Positions 29,301 through 35,287 of a stretch of DNA of 64,000 nucleotides are shown one piece after another. The first letter of the stretch is position 1. Each line of letters opens with the position of its first letter. The notes beneath the pieces were generated by a model. That model had not been told where the DNA came from, ran no database searches, and worked only from the letters and a program-made list of their open reading frames with translations. The translations under genes and the position numbers were made by a program. This stretch comes from an uncultured delta proteobacterium. GTDB lineage: Bacteria > Myxococcota_A > Polyangia > Polyangiales > Polyangiaceae. The stretch lies in the NCBI GenBank assembly GCA_963782055.1, contig CAWAIF010000003.1:3328001-3392000 (forward strand). The letters are read 5' to 3'.

Positions 29301-29729
29301 CTGCTGCCGCTCTTCGTCCAGTTCGGCCGTCGGGTCTACCGGCTGCCGGAGGAGCGCGCGCGCGCCGAGGCGCTGGAGGACTTCCGCGGCCACATGATCG
29401 AGGCGTTCAAGCTGCGCGGACGGGCGACGAGGCTCGGCTACGCGCGCGGCGCGACGGAGGACGGCGGCTGGTTCTATGCCTACGAGAAGGTGTTCCCGTC
29501 CCTCGGCCTGACGGTGGCGCTCGGCTTCAGCGGCAACGCCTTGCCGGAGGAGAACCGGACGGTCGCGCTCGGCGAGGTGCGGTTCGAGCGGCGGCACGGC
29601 CAGCGCGCGGTTGGGGCGAAGCTGGGCGAGGTGCCCGCCGTGCTGCTGAGCGAGGCTCGCGCGGACATGGAGGAGCTGGCGGGGGAGGGGACCGGCTTCG
29701 ACCCCGACTGGAAGAGCAAGGTGCGGTAG
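26304..29729 (+). CDS. DUF4132-domain (MolR-like) protein with HEAT-like repeats
   Basis: C-terminal GWTLDELADRTVPTAGLD..LDYGARRF..HPVL..VAHPVHL..WLEHLRDFELLPLFVQFGR..VPAVLLSE is a typical DUF4132 pattern. Confidence 0.8.
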   Translation: MKSGFEEALARDLAPLGDDAAKATAFVVRGTDEDVLGRVAGGKLRLKVRDAWGAEGRRALFLLLEQGDAGVLRRLGSVWAAAAKGSGHIPELEAERWVEHVVWESSELSPNHLGPPHTTLDARMLPDDAASLLVRVALTPDEDPKAAFSRNCFATAVLAAPHVGEVLVAHAEEVCAAVEALGASHRATALERLEATKVDPLPLLATLVGLAIGEAKTVRVAALKMLARVPEEARSALRAAALDAGRPAAERTHAVRCLSALGESDAGFFRRLLQDDAAKALKDAAEGALQAARAEVRAEVGDVVVPPLPQSAITAIRALADAWATEAPARLAAHAARFPAFRATAVEPITEEEIAEAVRQASEPDPWTRVPESGLARLFRSTDFREVHRLLARPDLHPVHVARLFRMFNPRVTDEHLLMRLDPILREHRAQAPAPYPLQTVEVAARYAGSATPRVGMLLLTGWPFQWGEEVQRAYLEHNVDVLEAALGVRAVPGLQLAPMYAYYAGDSRRNALEHIAALSQVPPGCAPRLWELALEGPKAERAPAQACVARIPGFEDRLLAAMHQGSQEARAAAARWVGSLRLERAKPALVAALRKEKKDVVRAALMDALEALGEPIDAFVDRAGLAKRAEQVLSKAACPALEWPEIAALPPLRWGDTGEVVGERVVRAWLAEAHKQKSPAASPVMRIYGRSLREDDRRAFAEALLRTWIAHDVEKPGGWSQTGYDKPSTAIGDKGVLALVAALGGREIAPLVAAYLREWYGVRAAQCKALVQMLAWVEDRGAVQVLLATGTRFRTAGIRKEAEAQARELAERKGWTLDELADRTVPTAGLDDRGELELDYGARRFRARLGESLELVLTDDTGAVLKAPPGPRKDEDAAVVKAARAGFARSKKELATILKMQSARFYEAMCTQRAWPAADWKDFVMGHPVLSRLAMGVVWSVEDGGRTASFRPLGDGALSAADHADVPLGDAGVVRVAHPVHLSDAEAAAWLEHLRDFELLPLFVQFGRRVYRLPEERARAEALEDFRGHMIEAFKLRGRATRLGYARGATEDGGWFYAYEKVFPSLGLTVALGFSGNALPEENRTVALGEVRFERRHGQRAVGAKLGEVPAVLLSEARADMEELAGEGTGFDPDWKSKVR

Positions 29730-29914
29730 GCCCATCCCCGCTGTTTCCGGGGCAAACGTCCCACTGCTAGCATGCTCGCAGTCGCGCGTTCCGGCGCGGC
29801 GTGGCGGGCGTGGCTGGGAGGTCGCCGTCACGATCCCCGGCCCCGTCCCCTCCCGGCGGGTGTCGGGAAACCGCCGCGGCCGCCGTCCATGGGCAAGAGG
29901 CCGAGCTTTTGCGC

Positions 29915-29942
29915 TTGACCTCCCCGCGCGCGCAAGTATGTT
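29915..29942 (+). promoter_or_regulatory. sigma70-type promoter of the tRNA-Val/tRNA-Asp operon
   Basis: TTGACC-N16-TATGTT followed by a GC-rich discriminator CCGCGCC. Confidence 0.7.
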
Positions 29943-29975
29943 CCGCGCCTGCCTTTTTCCTTACTTTGTGCCTGC

Positions 29976-30047
29976 GGGCGGGTAGCTCAGCGGTAGAGCG
30001 CTGGCCTTACAAGCCGGATGTCGCAGGTTCGAGCCCTGTCCCGCCCA
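29976..30047 (+). tRNA. tRNA-Val (TAC), CCA not encoded
   Basis: Acceptor GGGCGGG/CCCGCCC, D-arm GCTC..GAGC, anticodon loop CT-TAC-AA, T-arm GCAGG-TTCGAGC-CCTGT, discriminator A. Confidence 0.97.
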
Positions 30048-30090
30048 CGCTTCTCGGGTCGTTCAGGGTCGTCACTCGGTCGTTCACGTT

Positions 30091-30167
<77 letters not shown>

Positions 30168-30209
30168 ACGCAGAGACACTCCGAGAAGTCACGCCGCACG
30201 GGGGGGGCA

Positions 30210-30249
30210 GCACCCGGCCGCATGGGGCACGAAGCCCTGCGGCCGGTGC
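30210..30249. terminator. GC-rich hairpin between convergent tRNA-Asp and small ORF (possible terminator)
   Basis: GCACC.GGCCGCA..GGGC / GCCC TGCGGCC GGTGC imperfect stem; no U-tract. Confidence 0.35.
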
Positions 30250-30250
30250 G

Positions 30251-30454
30251 TCATGCGTGGGCGTGCCCGGTGTCGCCTTCCCAGCCCTCGATGAGGGCGA
30301 CGGGGAAGAGGGCCAGCAGCGTGGCCGTCAGCACGAAGAGCGCGAACGGCGAGATGAAGGCGAGAGAGAGGACGAACAGCGGCTTCTGCCAGCGCGGCAT
30401 TCCCGCGAAGGTGTGCCGCAAGGCGCGCCAGGGGTGAAGCTTCTCGCGTTTCAT
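30251..30454 (-). CDS. Small membrane protein (67 aa)
   Basis: SD AAGGAG 5 nt before ATG; hydrophobic segment LFVLSLAFISPFALFVLTATLLALFPVALI; ends GHAHA. Confidence 0.72.
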   Translation of the reverse strand: MKREKLHPWRALRHTFAGMPRWQKPLFVLSLAFISPFALFVLTATLLALFPVALIEGWEGDTGHAHA

Positions 30455-30539
30455 GGGTGCTCCTTTCTCCGCGCGTGCCGCGGCGGCGTGCGGTCGAGCC
30501 GAGCGTGCGACGAGGAAGCGGCGGATGCTGGAGATCCAA

Positions 30540-30553
30540 GCATCGCGCGTGCC
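30540..30553 (-). promoter_or_regulatory. Putative sigma54 -24/-12 promoter
   Basis: Minus strand reads GGCACG-cgcg-ATGC-TT, upstream of the 67-aa gene. Confidence 0.55.
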
Positions 30554-30672
30554 GCGCGGCCGGTGCGGGCGCGTTGCGGCTGGATCGCCGCTGCCTGACG
30601 GCTGTCGGAGTGTCGACGGCGTGCCGGGCGCGCCGGAATGCCGCTGCGCGGTGCAGACGGTGCGCCCCTGCG

Positions 30673-31035
30673 TCACTGCTTGGTGATCGTGTCGATCATC
30701 CGCCGCCCGTCATCGGTCTCGGTGAAGCGGAAGCTCACGTGGTCGCCCACGGCGATGCGGTCGAGCTGGTGCGTCGTGCGCGGCTCGAAGGACATGGTCA
30801 TCGCCTTCATGTAGCCGGGGATGTCCTCGTGGGCGATGTTGACGAAGTTGCGCGAGGGGCCGAACGACTTGACCACGCCCCGCGCGTCGTAGGTGTGCCC
30901 CTCCAGGAGCGGCGCCTCGTGCTCGCTCCGCGCCTCGTGCGCGGCGAGCGCGGCCGTTCCGGCCACGCAGAGCACCAGCCCCACCGAGAGCAAGATCCCA
31001 CCGAGCTTCGTCATGTGCTTCGTCCCTCGAGTCAT
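30673..31035 (-). CDS. CusF-like periplasmic copper-binding protein (start 31035 or 31014)
   Basis: Signal peptide, then ARGVVKSF..VNIAHEDIPGYMKAMTMSF..VGDHVSFRF (His plus Met-x-Met Cu(I) site of the CusF OB fold). Confidence 0.85.
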   Translation of the reverse strand: MTRGTKHMTKLGGILLSVGLVLCVAGTAALAAHEARSEHEAPLLEGHTYDARGVVKSFGPSRNFVNIAHEDIPGYMKAMTMSFEPRTTHQLDRIAVGDHVSFRFTETDDGRRMIDTITKQ

Positions 31036-31074
31036 GGGTCACCAGTCCTGGCGCATCTTAAGGCAGCGCGCCCG

Positions 31075-31989
31075 TCAAAACCACGTGTGCACCAGCGTCC
31101 AGTTGAGCCCGAGCGTCGCCGGCTGGTTGCGGCCGAGCCCGGGAGGCACCCACGCGATGCCGGTCTGCATGCGCCAGGTGTCGGAGACGGGGAAGACGGC
31201 GCCGGCGCCCAGCGTCAGGGCGTAGCGCTCGGAGTCCGGCGCGTCGCGGCCGTCGATCGTCGCGTCGCCCTCGTAGGCGAAGGACGCCGAGAGGGCGAGC
31301 GCGATGCCCTCGAAGGTCACGTAGGTGAGCGCGCCCAGCACGCTGATCTGCGGTGCCTCGGTCTCGCTGACCGCGCCCACCGTGCGCGAGGTGCGCGCGG
31401 CGAGGATGCCGGAGAGGTCGACCAGCCACGGCCCCAGGGCCTTCTCGAGCGAGAGGCCGCCGTTGATCTGGAAGGCGCCGATGCCGGTGGCGCCCGCGGC
31501 GAGCGGGCCGGACGCGGACTCCGGCGGCACCCCGGTCGGGAAGGTGATCCCGGCGAGGACCGCGATGCCGGGTACGTACTGCTTCTCCGCCGCCTCGAGG
31601 AAGTCGTAGCGCGCGCTCAGGTTGGCGTCGCCGAAGCCGCCGCCGAAGTCGGTCGTCGCGCCGGCCTTGCGCCGCGTCTCGACGAAGGGGACCAGCGCGG
31701 CGATCTGCGCGCGGCGGAAGAGGCGGACGGCCCCGAAGAGGTCCTGCTCCAGGTCCCACTCGGTGGTGCCCGCCGGGGGCGTGACGTAGTGGCCGCCGGC
31801 GTCGAAGGAGCCGACCAGCGAGCCGAGGCGGAGCTGGGCGCCGACGAGCGCCTTCTCGTGCATGGCGAGGCGTCCGGGGGTGACCGCGCCGGTGCCCGCG
31901 CAGCACGCCTGCGCCCTCGCGCTCCGCGCCCCGGAGAGGCACGCGACCGCGAGGGCCAGGCCGACGGCGGCAGCCCTAGCGGACGACAA
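31075..31989 (-). CDS. Putative outer-membrane beta-barrel transporter with N-terminal Cys-Cys motif
   Basis: Signal peptide ARA|QACCAG; LVPFV..GFGDANLSARY..FPTG..TGIG pattern (MetA/phenol-degradation-like barrel); alternating amphipathic strands; terminal Phe (HTWF). Confidence 0.7.
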   Translation of the reverse strand: MSSARAAAVGLALAVACLSGARSARAQACCAGTGAVTPGRLAMHEKALVGAQLRLGSLVGSFDAGGHYVTPPAGTTEWDLEQDLFGAVRLFRRAQIAALVPFVETRRKAGATTDFGGGFGDANLSARYDFLEAAEKQYVPGIAVLAGITFPTGVPPESASGPLAAGATGIGAFQINGGLSLEKALGPWLVDLSGILAARTSRTVGAVSETEAPQISVLGALTYVTFEGIALALSASFAYEGDATIDGRDAPDSERYALTLGAGAVFPVSDTWRMQTGIAWVPPGLGRNQPATLGLNWTLVHTWF

Positions 31990-32407
31990 CGCTCAGCACC
32001 GTGGTGTCGGCGGTCTGGCCCTGCGTCGCGGCGTGGAGGTCCCACGTCCCGGGCATGAACAGGTCCACGTCGGTAGCCACGTAGCGGCCGGAGCCGAGCG
32101 CGGTGACCGTGGGAACCACCGACGTGCCGTGGCCCATCGTCGGCATCCACGGCGTGACGGTCATGGTGAGGCCATCCACCGGTTGCGAGCTCGCGGCGTC
32201 CTGCACGGTGAGCTCCACCGCGTTGACGCCGCGCACGATGCCGGTGTCCTGGGCGCGCAGGGTGAGCTGCAGCGCCCCGGAGTCGCTCGTCGCGCTGTCC
32301 AGCGCAGCCGGCGCGAAGCGCAGGCTCGCCGGATTGGCCGTGGTCGGTCCGGACGAGGCGCACGCGACGGCGCCGAGCAGCATGGCGCCTGCCAGCCAGG
32401 GTCTCAC
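31976..32407 (-). CDS. YtkA/FixH-like lipoprotein
   Basis: Lipobox AVA-C; PWMPTMGHG metal motif; GRY..LFMPGTW. GTG overlaps the upstream stop (GTGA). Confidence 0.82.
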   Translation of the reverse strand: MRPWLAGAMLLGAVACASSGPTTANPASLRFAPAALDSATSDSGALQLTLRAQDTGIVRGVNAVELTVQDAASSQPVDGLTMTVTPWMPTMGHGTSVVPTVTALGSGRYVATDVDLFMPGTWDLHAATQGQTADTTVLSVVVR

Positions 32408-33027
32408 GGGACGCTCACGTAGAACGCCGCGTGGCCGTGAGGCGAGTCCTCGGTGTCCGTGCACTCCTCGCGGAAGTGGAAGCGCACCGTCCACTGCCCC
32501 GGCTTGTCGAAGCGGATGGGCCCGACGGTGTAGACGCCGGGGGAGGTCTCCGTCGCGTGCGGCGAGGAGTTGGGCGCCGGGTGGGTGTCGTTGAGGAACA
32601 CCTCCAGGTCCGGGTTGGCGTCGGTGAGCGGCGTGCCGTCCACCTTGGTCGTGGCGGTGACGGTGAAGGTCACGTCGGCGTTCTCGCAGACGGGGCTGGA
32701 CGACCACTTCACGTGGTACTTGCAGTCGTCGTCGTCGCCCTCCTGGTTGAACATGGTATCGCCGTAGTCCCCCGTCGCGCCGGCGTCGGGATCGGCCGCG
32801 CCGGCGTCGGCGGTGCAGGCCGCGGGGTCGACGGTCACGACGATCGGCCCGGCGTCGCCGCTGCAGTGGGTGTCGGCGGCGCCGGAGACCGGGCCTCCGG
32901 GGGTGGAGCAACTGGCGTTGTCGCTGGACGTGGAGCACGCGGCGATGACGACGGCGAGCGCGGCGATCGCGCCCGCGGTCCGGATGGAACCTCGAGACGA
33001 AGACAACGAATGGACGTGTACGGACAT
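32404..33027 (-). CDS. YtkA/FixH-like Cys/His-containing lipoprotein
   Basis: SD GGAGG; lipobox IAA-C; DDDDCKYHV, THPAPN, PGVYTVGPIRFDKPGQWTVRFH, SPHGHAAF. Confidence 0.75.
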   Translation of the reverse strand: MSVHVHSLSSSRGSIRTAGAIAALAVVIAACSTSSDNASCSTPGGPVSGAADTHCSGDAGPIVVTVDPAACTADAGAADPDAGATGDYGDTMFNQEGDDDDCKYHVKWSSSPVCENADVTFTVTATTKVDGTPLTDANPDLEVFLNDTHPAPNSSPHATETSPGVYTVGPIRFDKPGQWTVRFHFREECTDTEDSPHGHAAFYVSVP

Positions 33028-33083
33028 GCAGGCCTCCTGCAGACGTGGGAACGTGCGCGCGGACCCCCACCGCGCGAGGTGGA

Positions 33084-33503
33084 TCACGCCGCGAGGGCTC
33101 GAGGAGGCGGGGTGGGCGGCTCGTCCGGACCGCGGGAGCGAAGGGGCAACGGCTGCGGCGCGCGCGTCACCGTGACCACGCGCGGGAGGGGAGCCAGCTC
33201 GGCGGTGAGCCCGGCGGGGCTGCACGTCGGCAGCGCGGGGGCCGGCGCGGGCGGGTCGGTGTCGCAGGTGGAGTGGATGACCGGGTAGGGCGTGGCGCGC
33301 CGCTCCAGCAGGCGCTCGTGCGCCAGAGCCTCGCACTCCGGGCAGTGGCACTCCCCCATCTTCATCCCGCACATGCAGTGATGCTCCTGCACGCCACCCA
33401 GCGCGCGGATCACCGGCATCGTCGCGGGGCCCAGCCACACGGGCGCCAGTACCACGAGCAAGCAGCAGAGCTTGACCACGGCGTGCACCGCAGCCCTGGA
33501 CAT
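33084..33503 (-). CDS. DUF2946/CutF/CruR-like Cys-rich leader protein with C-terminal polyproline motif (139 aa)
   Basis: Hydrophobic N-terminus, HHCMCGMKMGECHCPEC, Pro-rich linker, terminal EPPTPPPR; first gene of the Cu operon. Confidence 0.72.
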   Translation of the reverse strand: MSRAAVHAVVKLCCLLVVLAPVWLGPATMPVIRALGGVQEHHCMCGMKMGECHCPECEALAHERLLERRATPYPVIHSTCDTDPPAPAPALPTCSPAGLTAELAPLPRVVTVTRAPQPLPLRSRGPDEPPTPPPRALAA

Positions 33504-33546
33504 CCTGCGCGGTCTCGCGGAGAGGGCCCGCGCCACCACCGACCGC

Positions 33547-33580
33547 GCGTCGGATTGCAAGGACCCTTGCAATGCGACGC
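33547..33580. promoter_or_regulatory. 34-bp near-perfect palindrome, putative repressor operator
   Basis: GCGTCG-g-ATTGCAAGG-ac-CCTTGCAAT-g-CGACGC in the divergent intergenic region, 44-77 bp upstream of the leader ORF. Confidence 0.65.
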
Positions 33581-33780
33581 CAGGCCGCGGGAAACGGCCA
33601 CGGACCACGCCATCCGACCCTGGCCGAAGGCCGGGCGACGGCTGCAGAGGCGCGCAGAGGAAGGGCCGCCAGGGCATCACGGCTCCTCTGCTATAGATGC
33701 GGGTCGCGCCCGGGGCAAGTCGGCTCATGTGGACTTCCCGCGCGCGATCCCTTATTTCAAGGGCCCCAGAGGACACCCCG

Positions 33781-34008
33781 ATGATCGAATGGCCCCACGA
33801 AGACGCGCAGACCGAAGGCGCCTCGCGAGTTCTCGAGCTGTTCAAGAAGACGGGCTTCGCCGCCCAGCTGGAGGAGGACACCCACACCTGGACCTTCCGG
33901 AGCTGGGCGCGCAGCCCGGAGGCGCCGGCCCGCATGCTGCTGCGCAACGACGCCGGCGAGTCGCGCGCCTTCGTGCGCGAGGTCACCGGGCTCTGGCGCG
34001 TGGAGTAG
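33781..34008 (+). CDS. Small hypothetical protein (75 aa)
   Basis: GAGGA before ATG 33781; coding-like codons; MIEWPHED...VTGLWRVE. Confidence 0.6.
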   Translation: MIEWPHEDAQTEGASRVLELFKKTGFAAQLEEDTHTWTFRSWARSPEAPARMLLRNDAGESRAFVREVTGLWRVE

Positions 34009-34048
34009 CCTCACCCTCCGCCCCTCTCTCCACTGCCTGGAGAGGGGG
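34009..34048. repeat. REP-like palindromic element, copy 1
   Basis: CCTCACCC..CCCCTCTCTCCA-ctgcc-TGGAGAGGGG; similar to 47489-47532; at a convergent junction. Confidence 0.65.
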
Positions 34049-34892
34049 AGGAGAAGGAGGCGAGGAGGGTGCGGTAGGCGGGCTCGGCTTCGGGGAGGCC
34101 GATGGCCACCAGACCCGGGACCACGTCCTCCTCCATGCCGTCGAAGAAGGCGCGCGCGTAGCCGGCGTCGGTGAGCGTGCCGAAGTTGGGCTCGGGCTGC
34201 GCCTCCGGCTCGCCGCGCGCCCACTCCGGCCCGCGGGTGGCGAGGCACAGGCGTGCAAAGTGGGCGAAGAGGCCCGGCAGCTCGCCGGCGAGGCGATCGC
34301 GCTCGCCAGGGTCCGCCTCACGCATCAGCAGGGCGCCCGCCTCCCAGCCGAACTCGCCGTGGAAGGTCTCGTCGACCAGGATGGCCGACACCACCTCCCG
34401 CGCCAGCGGCACGGTGGCCGCGCGCAGCGCGCGCCGGAACATGCGGCCGCTCAGCGTCTCGCCGATGCAGAAGGCGGCGACGAGCATCTGTCGGACGTGC
34501 TCGCGCAGCGAGGCGCCGGCCACCTCGTGGTGGAGGGCGTCGGCGTCGACCTCCGGCGCGGCGGGTCGGCCGAAGGCCTCGCACATGCGCATGCACAGAT
34601 CCGTGTGGCGGACCTCGTCGGCGATCATCCGGGCGAAGGCGCCGGACCAGTCGAGCGGCGCGCCGAGGAGCTGCACGTGGGCCGCCAGCTCGGTGAAGAG
34701 GGTCAGCGAGTGGAGCTCCTGCACCGCCCGCGTGCGCCAGAGGAGCGCGGCGTCGTCGAGCGCGTGGGCGTCGTAGCCCGCCGGATCGAACGCCTCGAAG
34801 TGGACCTCGCCCCGGCGCGGTCGCACCAGGAGCTCGTGCTCCTCGGTCAGCGCGAGGTCCTCGCCGCTGCTGCGGCGCAGCGTGAAGGTCAC
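34011..34892 (-). CDS. Ferritin-like di-iron four-helix-bundle protein (about 293 aa)
   Basis: Ligand pattern E(QELHS)..DEVRH..E(GETL)..DETFH; GTG start 13 nt after the upstream stop. Confidence 0.82.
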   Translation of the reverse strand: MTFTLRRSSGEDLALTEEHELLVRPRRGEVHFEAFDPAGYDAHALDDAALLWRTRAVQELHSLTLFTELAAHVQLLGAPLDWSGAFARMIADEVRHTDLCMRMCEAFGRPAAPEVDADALHHEVAGASLREHVRQMLVAAFCIGETLSGRMFRRALRAATVPLAREVVSAILVDETFHGEFGWEAGALLMREADPGERDRLAGELPGLFAHFARLCLATRGPEWARGEPEAQPEPNFGTLTDAGYARAFFDGMEEDVVPGLVAIGLPEAEPAYRTLLASFSSPSPGSGERGGG

Positions 34893-34905
34893 GGCGCCTT
34901 GCGCG

Positions 34906-35223
34906 CTACCGGGGGAGGCCCCTGGGCGGGGCGTTGATGATGCGCGGGCGGAAGCTCGGCGGGCCGCTCGGCGCGGGCGCCGCGCTGGCGGAGCCGGACG
35001 GCGCGGCGGACGGGGCCGCGCTGTCCGACGGCGCGGGGGTGGCGGTCGCGTTGGTGTGGACCTGCTCGGTCGGCGCCGGCCCGTTGACGTGCGGCTCGGA
35101 GGTGTCCGGCGCGTTGACGCCCGGCGGGTTGTCCTTGGTGCAGGCCACCGCGAGGGTGCCGATGCCCACGAGCGCCACGCCTCGGGTGAGGGCGGTGAGC
35201 CGTTGGAGTCGATGACGTCGCAT
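34906..35223 (-). CDS. Small disordered lipoprotein with repeated xN(A/G)P motifs (105 aa)
   Basis: Arg-rich N-terminus, lipobox AVA-C, motifs GVNAP, HVNGP, HTNAT, IINAP; TAGGCT 6 nt before ATG. Confidence 0.72.
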   Translation of the reverse strand: MRRHRLQRLTALTRGVALVGIGTLAVACTKDNPPGVNAPDTSEPHVNGPAPTEQVHTNATATPAPSDSAAPSAAPSGSASAAPAPSGPPSFRPRIINAPPRGLPR

Positions 35224-35287
35224 GCCCGCAGCCTACCCCAAACGGCTCCCCCCGCCATCCCCGCCGCGCTCCGGCCACCGCAAGACC

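Follow-up and report, generated by a model that had tools for sequence, protein, structure and literature searches.

A CutF-like leader gene of Polyangia whose polyproline codons may mask the Shine-Dalgarno sequence of the next gene

The leader gene and its gene string

The DNA described here is a stretch of 64,000 nucleotides (nt), called the window, from the genome of an uncultured delta proteobacterium of the Polyangiaceae (contig CAWAIF010000003.1, positions 3,328,001 to 3,392,000), and its GC content is 72.5%. On the minus strand of the window lies a small open reading frame (ORF) of 139 amino acids (aa), P0001, ahead of a string of genes that resemble periplasmic copper handling or tolerance genes. 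This ORF is a real, conserved leader gene similar in kind to CutF, the leader of the Rhodobacter capsulatus cutFOG operon. The reading preferred here, which we consider fairly probable, is that P0001 would act in cis as an exported, metal-sensing leader of the CutF type, and that the codons of its near-terminal Pro-Pro-Pro motif (PPP) would mask the following gene's Shine-Dalgarno (SD) sequence. All coordinates are positions within the window, and they are collected in Table 1.

Read 5' to 3', the leader gene closes with GAG CCG CCC ACC CCG CCT CCT CGA GCC CTC GCG GCG TGA. An initial annotation of this DNA, made from the sequence alone, had let the leader end at P-P-T-P-P-P-R, but the residues A-L-A-A follow before the stop codon. 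The spacer to the start of the lipoprotein gene measures 56 nt and ends with TCTGCAGGAGGCCTGC ATG, the start codon lying at 33027-33025. Two other elements of that annotation were confirmed on the minus strand, namely the perfect complementarity between GCCUCCU in the Pro codons and AGGAGGC at the SD, and the local hairpin UGCAGG-agg-CCUGCA over the SD. By eye, no comparable palindrome stood out in 7 ortholog sequences.

Table 1. Positions of the leader gene, its parts and the neighbouring features in the window.
Feature	Position	Strand	Basis or remark
Leader ORF P0001, 139 aa	33084..33503	-	tail EPPTPPPRALAA; TGA stop 33086-33084
N-terminal hydrophobic helix, residues 3-23	33435..33497	-	AlphaFold2, block pLDDT (predicted local distance difference test) 94-95; putative Sec signal peptide or membrane anchor
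Candidate metal-binding cluster H41-H-C-M-C-G-M-K-M-G-E-C-H-C-P-E-C57	33333..33383	-	conservation
Distal invariant Cys, C80	33264-33266	-	conservation
Arrest-type motif P129-P-T-P-P-P-R135	33099..33119	-	CCG CCC ACC CCG CCT CCT CGA
Anti-Shine-Dalgarno (anti-SD) GCCUCCU inside Pro codons	33102..33108	-	sequence; pairing with the SD in the minimum-energy fold
Leader end and intergenic spacer	33042..33098	-	two inner hairpins inside the long-range anti-SD:SD helix (minimum-energy structure)
Local hairpin UGCAGG-agg-CCUGCA	33027..33041	-	-7.1 kcal/mol; covers the SD and the A of AUG
SD AGGAGG(C) of the lipoprotein gene	33032..33038	-	5 nt ahead of the ATG
YtkA-like-domain lipoprotein P0002, 207 aa, proposed regulated gene	32404..33027	-	PF13115 E=9.9e-8; lipobox AACS by eye
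Second YtkA-like lipoprotein, GTG start	31976..32407	-	PF13115 E=6.3e-10
Outer-membrane beta-barrel-type protein, Phenol_MetA_deg-like	31075..31989	-	PF13557 E=5.1e-5
CusF-like periplasmic copper-binding protein	30673..31035	-	PF11604 E=2e-15
tRNA-Val (TAC)	29976-30048	+	past the CusF-like gene, opposite strand
tRNA-Asp (GTC)	30091-30167	+	past the CusF-like gene, opposite strand

At 32404-32407 the start of the second YtkA-like gene overlaps the stop of the first in the sequence GTGA, and this overlap suggests translational coupling within the operon. No Rfam family was found in 29500-34500 except the two tRNAs, and no match to a sigma-70-like promoter was obtained in 30300-34100. One terminator-like site, a weak one, lies upstream of the leader at 33866-33851, and none lies between the leader and the lipoprotein gene. 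About 500 nt (33504-34010) separate the leader's ATG from the next upstream ORF of the same strand (34011-35258), a segment in which no promoter-like site is seen. A search of sequencing runs found the stretch partially present in small-share soil-metagenome DNA contigs, and no RNA run was matched.

The leader protein and its family

According to the AlphaFold2 model and the ortholog alignment, the helix of residues 3-23 is followed by a conserved LGP. A first search of 61 related genomes returned seven clear orthologous loci, and common to all eight sequences, the window's included, are M1, the LGP after the hydrophobic stretch, H41-x-C-x-C-G-M...G-x-C-x-C-x-x-C57, C80 and an invariant T-P-P-P-R (T131, P132-134 and R135), after which 1-4 residues precede the stop. 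When 34 family members are compared, the invariant columns are H41, C43, C45, G46, M47, G50, C52, C54, P55, C57 and C80, as well as P132-134 and R135; the cluster pattern of the family, H-x-C-x-C-G-M...C-x-C-P-x-C, stands alongside the N-terminal helix and the near-terminal TPPPR. The AlphaFold2 model of the whole leader has a mean pLDDT of 73.5 and a predicted template modelling score (pTM) of 0.36, with short helices near the Cys cluster and coil from about residue 69 to the C-terminus. Such a predicted structure is in keeping with a segment for signal or anchoring, then a small site for metal and a long stretch that sets it apart from the stall motif.

For the family-wide analyses, 95 loci were gathered and then searched with a hidden Markov model (HMM) of the eight orthologs. 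They yielded 71 unique leader ORFs and a further one that is cut off by the end of its contig; 62 have a recognisable downstream start, and 53 representatives at no more than 70% protein identity were used for the pairing tests. PPP lies within the last 16 residues in 63 of the 71 ORFs, with 2-10 further residues before the stop, and is missing from that segment in eight (L050, L064, L065, L068, L075, L078, L088 and L091). The spacer between the leader and the downstream co-oriented gene ranges from 17 to 275 nt across the family.

A 139-aa protein with helices and a conserved Cys cluster could also be a stable periplasmic or membrane-anchored metallochaperone rather than a regulator, its Pro-rich tail serving protein contacts and the complementarity to the SD being inconsequential. 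CutF itself was first discussed as a possible chaperone, in the account given in PMC8456105. A metallochaperone would not, however, account for an invariant PPPR placed 2-10 residues before the stop, nor for a leader consistently followed, after 17-275 nt, by a co-oriented gene whose SD is strong. Two observations described below, a codon bias restricted to exactly the PPP-R codons and the covariation of the PPP codons with the SD, are equally foreign to it, and we regard this alternative as very improbable indeed.

The leader family is unannotated and occurs mostly in Polyangia. A profile search for homologs returned 169 proteins; none of the 120 matches listed carries a Pfam domain, and the few named homologs among those listed belong to Polyangiaceae or Labilithrix. 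An exhaustive search covering 1.84 billion representatives recovered 168 clusters (50% identity, E<=1e-3). Within the window's taxonomic family, matches are found in 49 of 383 genomes, a tally that takes in one genome flagged as unpublished. The nearest protein-atlas clusters are made up of hypothetical proteins without a name, which are found most often in Acidobacteriota and include no DUF2946, and a profile search of the PDB with the leader family gave nothing at E<=1. The 139-aa ORF belongs to a distinct sequence family, named in no library.

The initial annotation had taken the leader for a DUF2946 protein, and this assignment did not survive. Pfam and NCBIfam models gave no match to P0001 at E<=1, and none of the eight orthologs matched DUF2946 at E<=10. 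With the gathering score of PF11162 (23.7 bits) as the threshold of membership, this model was scanned over the whole genome, where its best hit, at E 0.4, lay elsewhere and nothing was returned at the leader locus. In a sample of the phylum it rose above the cut-off in 9 of 301 genomes, and in 0 of 23 genomes of the window's taxonomic family. An hhalign comparison of 34 members with 8 Myxococcota DUF2946 proteins returned a probability of 0.4% (E=0.16), only 11 C-terminal columns being aligned. Membership of DUF2946 was therefore rejected by every test applied, that is, by HMM, genome scan and hhalign.

CutF-like proteins have also been given a rule-based definition, stated in PMC9973294 as fewer than 150 aa, PP within the last 15 residues and an N-terminal signal peptide. 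The leader of the window agrees with this definition in its 139 aa and in its PPP at residues 132-134, and it is followed after 56 nt by a co-oriented YtkA-like lipoprotein gene, with a CusF-like gene in the same gene string; its N-terminal helix may be the signal. It would work like CutF, yet by sequence it stands outside the CutF family. What remains of the initial description of an exported Cys-motif leader of a copper operon is a probably exported leader with the conserved Cys/His/Met cluster, the near-terminal PPP(R) and the downstream string of two YtkA-like genes, an outer-membrane protein and a CusF-like protein; the link to DUF2946 was lost.

Codon choice at the arrest-type motif and pairing with the Shine-Dalgarno sequence

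The anti-SD of the window's locus, GCCTCCT in DNA letters, consists of the G of the CCG codon of P132 and the CCT codons of P133 and P134. That T-ending Pro codons are atypical here, as the initial annotation held, is borne out by the counts: CCT makes up 2 of the 23 Pro codons of the leader, both within PPP, and 4 of the 68 Pro codons of the five-gene operon. The only CGA of the leader encodes R135, right after PPP. In the 63 loci with PPP, its codons (n=189) are CCT in 89 cases (47%), CCG in 46, CCA in 35 (18.5%) and CCC in 19, while the background Pro codons of the same loci (n=1716) are 8.3% CCT, 6.0% CCA, 51.2% CCG and 34.5% CCC. The Pro two codons before PPP shows ordinary usage (CCG 22, CCC 11, CCT 4, CCA 1). 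The codon bias of the family is confined to the stall site, PPP-R.

At the level of the family, the anti-SD signal is well beyond chance. A 15-nt window over PPP pairs with the SD window of its own locus at -10.53 kcal/mol, compared with -9.51 kcal/mol for permuted partners (p=0.0004, 53 representatives). Six control windows placed 15-120 nt upstream reach -7.5 to -8.4 kcal/mol against the SD and show no own-partner advantage (p=0.22-0.91). These shorter, SD-anchored windows superseded a ranking of 24-nt duplexes. The longest contiguous Watson-Crick run between PPP and SD has a median of 5, with 10 in L019, 9 in L043, 8 in L045, L046 and L056, and 7 in the window's locus.

Covariation between the arrest codons and the SD, which the initial annotation had suggested looking for in orthologs, was found as well. 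It was assessed in the 29 representatives with a CUCC within the T-PPP-R window and a GGAG in the SD zone ahead of their start codon. In 23 of these, the nucleotide that follows CUCC is complementary to the one that precedes GGAG, where permutation gives a mean of 13.0 (standard deviation 2.2, p=1e-4); on the leader side, this nucleotide is the third, synonymous position of the Pro codon that comes next. All four Watson-Crick types are represented among the covarying pairs (A:U 13, C:G 7, U:A 2, G:C 1). With representatives thinned to no more than 50% identity, the count is about 13 of 16, compared with 6.8 (median p=0.001); p is about 0.009 when the limit is 45% identity. One clade holds AGGAG/CUCCU, CGGAG/CUCCG and GGGAG/CUCCC side by side; the tree has 10 changes of the C-type SD flank and 7 of the G-type codon.

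The same C/U-rich stretch could instead be Rho-loading RNA, with the PPP stall governing Rho access or termination in the spacer, a transcriptional control similar to that of CruR, the DUF2946 leader of Bordetella pertussis. CruR is described as working in this way, and two of its Pro codons are rare CCT codons within an unstructured, C/U-rich stretch whose structure is reported to matter for regulation (PMC9426467). Among the 53 representatives, distant members of the present family do lie ahead of genes of the uptake type (three MbnP genes and one TonB-receptor plug). Against this stand the covariation at the SD flank, which is not expected of a Rho-loading site, and the length of the C/U-rich element, only about 9 nt in a sequence of 72.5% GC. 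The 56-nt spacer is short and predicted to be strongly structured, and a terminator-like site between the leader and the next gene was not found. We hold control through Rho to be distinctly unlikely.

Folding of the RNA agrees with masking of the SD by the PPP codons. The minimum-energy fold of 33140-33000 contains the GCCUCCU:AGGAGGC helix. Partition-function folds of the segment that begins 30 nt ahead of PPP and closes 12 nt beyond the start codon leave the SD of the window's locus unpaired with P=0.02 and pair it with the PPP window with P=0.86; for random synonymous recodings of this locus at background usage, the values are 0.30 and 0.17, respectively. Across 46 loci with spacers of up to 150 nt, P(SD:PPP) exceeds 0.5 in 15, compared with 3 loci in which the mean of the null does so, and its mean is 0.301, versus 0.116 for the null (p=2e-4). 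The accessibility of the SD in the family is 0.218, versus 0.264 for recodings, a modest difference because the SD in such GC-rich RNA is usually paired with something.

The effect of a ribosome was modelled as an unpaired block on PPP, and the energy required to open the ribosome-binding site (RBS) was calculated for 52 loci. The mean opening energy is 10.47 kcal/mol in free RNA, 8.83 kcal/mol with the ribosome at PPP and 10.00 kcal/mol with a control block 30 nt upstream (p=0.0099 versus control). In some loci the effect of the PPP block is large, the opening energy falling from 14.4 to 2.8 kcal/mol in L019, from 12.9 to 4.3 kcal/mol in L021 and from 13.5 to 5.4 kcal/mol in L043.

A number of observations weigh against the PPP codons as anti-SD. 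At the window's locus taken alone, the match is unremarkable, as CCTCCT occurs 37 and 48 times on the two strands of the 64-kb window, and the fold energy of 33140-33000 is ordinary (z=-0.88 versus shuffles). With the 24-nt windows, the SD region often has better partners than PPP, 115 of 276 windows being lower-scoring in the window's locus. A phylogenetically independent-pairs test was underpowered, with 5 pairs, about 3 concordant and 0 discordant (median p=0.25). The other side of the helix lacks covariation (6 of 11 versus 5.8 expected, p=0.6), and the association of CCUCG with CGAGG is not significant (Fisher p=0.14). In the folds, P(SD:PPP) exceeds 0.5 in only 15 of the 46 loci, and it is about 0 in many distant members; for L063 and L074 it is 0.00. 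A ribosome at the stop codon yields a mean opening energy of 9.37 kcal/mol, and that of a ribosome at PPP is not significantly lower (p=0.089). At the window's locus itself the PPP block lowers the opening energy from 10.7 to 9.7 kcal/mol, with 9.8 kcal/mol for the control block and 9.6 kcal/mol for a ribosome at the stop codon. The codons supply further counterpoints that pairing does not explain: CCA is enriched about 3-fold at PPP (18.5% versus 6.0%), L077 and L079 encode PPP as CCA three times over, and of the 56 Arg codons that follow PPP, 25 are CGA and 9 are AGA, against backgrounds of 12.3% and 2.3%.

Two of these points can be qualified. The small gain at the window's locus apparently arises because the local hairpin UGCAGG-agg-CCUGCA takes over once the long-range helix is opened; in this locus, the two states of the switch would be the strong long-range helix and the weak local hairpin, a difference that the equilibrium model captures poorly. 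And because pairing leaves the enrichment of CCA, CGA and AGA unexplained, selection for slow decoding at the arrest site is likely too; a second feature, additive to the first, is probably that the rare codons of PPP-R ending in A or U slow down decoding.

Slow decoding might even be the whole explanation. The rare CCU, CCA, CGA and AGA codons would then slow the ribosome, the complementarity to the SD would be a by-product of CCU CCN, and the true SD-sequestering element, if any, would be intergenic, as in cutF-cutO. The 3-fold rise of CCA favours this, as do the joint share of CGA and AGA (34 of 56 Arg codons against a background of 14.6%), the all-CCA motifs of L077 and L079 together with the P(SD:PPP) of 0.00 in the related L063 and L074, the gain of just about 1 kcal/mol from the PPP block at the window's locus, and the 31 of 46 loci in which the SD is mostly paired elsewhere. 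The anti-SD of CutF (CTTC) is, moreover, placed in a stem-loop of the 40-bp intergenic region in the descriptions of PMC9973294 and PMC8456105. Slow decoding does not, however, predict that the third base of a Pro codon tracks the base 5' of GGAG (23 of 29 versus 13.0, p=1e-4), nor that an own-partner advantage should be exclusive to the PPP window; and among the 124 uses of CCT or CCA at PPP, the ratio CCT:CCA is 89:35, versus 143:103 in the background. As a sole cause, slow decoding is considered unlikely.

The claim of the initial annotation that the Pro codons are the anti-SD of the next gene therefore fares differently at its two levels. For the family it is supported, by the enrichment of CCT, the partner-specific duplex energy and the covariation; for the window's own locus it is plausible, weakened by the near-identity of the ribosome block and its control (9.7 versus 9.8 kcal/mol).

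Proposed mechanism and known leaders

Taking CutF as the analogue, we infer a course of events that begins during translation, when the N-terminal helix of the leader would bring the nascent chain to the Sec translocon. Residues 41-57, the Cys/His/Met cluster, precede PPP-R by 75-90 residues; at this spacing they and C80 would already be outside the membrane when the ribosome is at P132-P134. A metal bound by the cluster, probably Cu(I), would alter, and by analogy with CutF prolong, the dwell of the ribosome on PPP-R. In unoccupied mRNA, the ..G CCU CCU.. of the motif would pair with the AGGAGGC SD that serves the YtkA-like lipoprotein gene, about 70 nt further downstream. A ribosome on PPP would bury this anti-SD and leave the SD with the weak local hairpin only, and thus usable; with Pro133 in its P site, it would cover about 33119-33092, the entire anti-SD, and about 45 nt would be left before the binding site of the 30S subunit. 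A ribosome that runs through would terminate five codons later, and the long-range helix would re-form. The downstream genes resemble periplasmic copper handling or tolerance genes, and the likely logic is therefore that copper lengthens the stall and turns the operon on.

Among the 53 representatives, the downstream gene is of YtkA type in 14, MbnP in 3, DUF1775 in 1 and a TonB-receptor plug in 1. The distant members L086, L090, L093, L076 and L023 precede uptake-type copper genes, the one with the TonB-receptor plug being L023, which comes from a genome of Thermoanaerobaculia. Regulation may not have the same sign throughout the family, and distant members may follow an opposite, CruR-like logic. 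In a further group (L063, L074, L077, L079 and L081), the leader tails read ARPPPTPPPR plus 6 residues, PPP is rich in CCA and the spacers measure 70-194 nt. These leaders precede lipoproteins of about 110 aa with His/Asp-rich N-termini (C-D-S-H-D-E), and L063 and L074 pair on the tree. An element different from the PPP codons appears to sequester the SD in this group.

The kind of system is already known from SecM, MifM, VemP, CutF and CruR. The closest likeness is to CutF, whose tail is reported as P109-EPEGPPPRL-118 (PMC8456105; bioRxiv 10.1101/2025.02.05.636593) and for which the published model has metal binding prolong the dwell on PPP (PMC9973294; bioRxiv 10.1101/2025.02.05.636593). Both leaders are small (<150 aa) and have a hydrophobic segment at the N-terminus, which in CutF is a Sec signal; they share a Cys metal motif and a near-terminal PPPR (EPEGPPPRL* in CutF, EPPTPPPRALAA* in the Polyangia leader). 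In both, a short spacer leads to a co-oriented copper gene whose SD is sequestered by RNA structure, in the Polyangia leader by prediction, and a stall that exposes the SD is the proposed logic. The two differ in that no homology is detectable between them (the DUF2946 HMM and hhalign being negative), and CutF has a CxxxC where the Polyangia leader has the expanded H-x-C-x-C-G-M-x-x-G-x-C-x-C-P-x-C and a distal Cys. The target of CutF is a multicopper oxidase, whereas YtkA-like lipoproteins and CusF follow here. The anti-SD of CutF lies, by its description, in an intergenic stem-loop, although the cutF stem might reach its last codons, whereas that of the Polyangia leader would lie inside the PPP codons.

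With CruR (Bp2923), as described in PMC9426467, the leader shares the position of a copper-responsive upstream ORF, a Cys motif, a C-terminal arrest-type motif, and rare CCT Pro codons in a C/U-rich stretch, RNA properties being reported to matter for regulation there. In that description, however, the RAPP motif of CruR is built from frequent codons and about 20 codons separate the arrest motif from the rare CCT codons upstream of it; termination is Rho-dependent, the spacer measures 162 nt, and copper relieves the arrest, so that the importer is turned off. SecM-secA, MifM-yidC2, VemP-secDF and ErmCL-type leaders likewise carry an arrest peptide near the leader end, and their stalled ribosome opens an mRNA helix that hides an SD (summarised in bioRxiv 10.1101/2025.02.05.636593). 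They sense export force or a drug, not a metal, and their arrest motifs are not known to be plain PPP with codons complementary to GGAGG.

Anti-SD-like pyrimidine tracts in coding sequence have been reported from experiments in Bacillus subtilis to pair over long range with the RBS, and in the same report (PMC12697547) such tracts are normally depleted, which makes their enrichment at PPP notable. In the open-access literature, searched by title and start of abstract, no description of arrest-site Pro codons as an anti-SD was found, and prior publication is still possible. Three aspects appear to be new: a putative Polyangia leader family that lies outside DUF2946 and has an expanded Cys/His/Met motif; codon bias and covariation as evidence for an anti-SD role of the arrest codons themselves; and the confinement of rare codons to PPP-R.

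A broader and more tentative proposal is that of a dual-coded arrest site, in which PPP stalls the ribosome and its CCU-CCN codons, retained despite a strong GC codon bias, are the anti-SD, so that arrest and unmasking would be one physical event. Such a design may have arisen independently in unrelated leader families (the unnamed Polyangia family, DUF2946 and others), a possibility that we rate as somewhat doubtful. It is pointed to by DUF2946 leaders of myxobacteria, 5 of 8 of which (L098, L099, L104, L106 and L109, two of the five being 89% identical) begin their terminal Pro-Pro with CCT; the CCU-CCN design may thus extend to DUF2946 itself. These DUF2946 leaders end in SPP or RAPP-type motifs, and in L106 the tail is TCG CCT CCG, with a CAGGAGG SD about 30 nt past the stop.

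The reading proposed here would extend copper sensing by nascent exported peptides, as in CutF and CruR, to a myxobacterial leader family recognised by no library. It would also provide a simple design rule, namely that Pro-Pro codons can spell CCUCC, so that a polyproline arrest site can double as an anti-SD, and a rare case in which synonymous-site selection in an arrest motif would be readable from covariation with the RBS of the neighbouring gene. In this way, about 170 unannotated small ORFs are flagged as probable regulators of copper genes of the YtkA, CusF and MbnP types.

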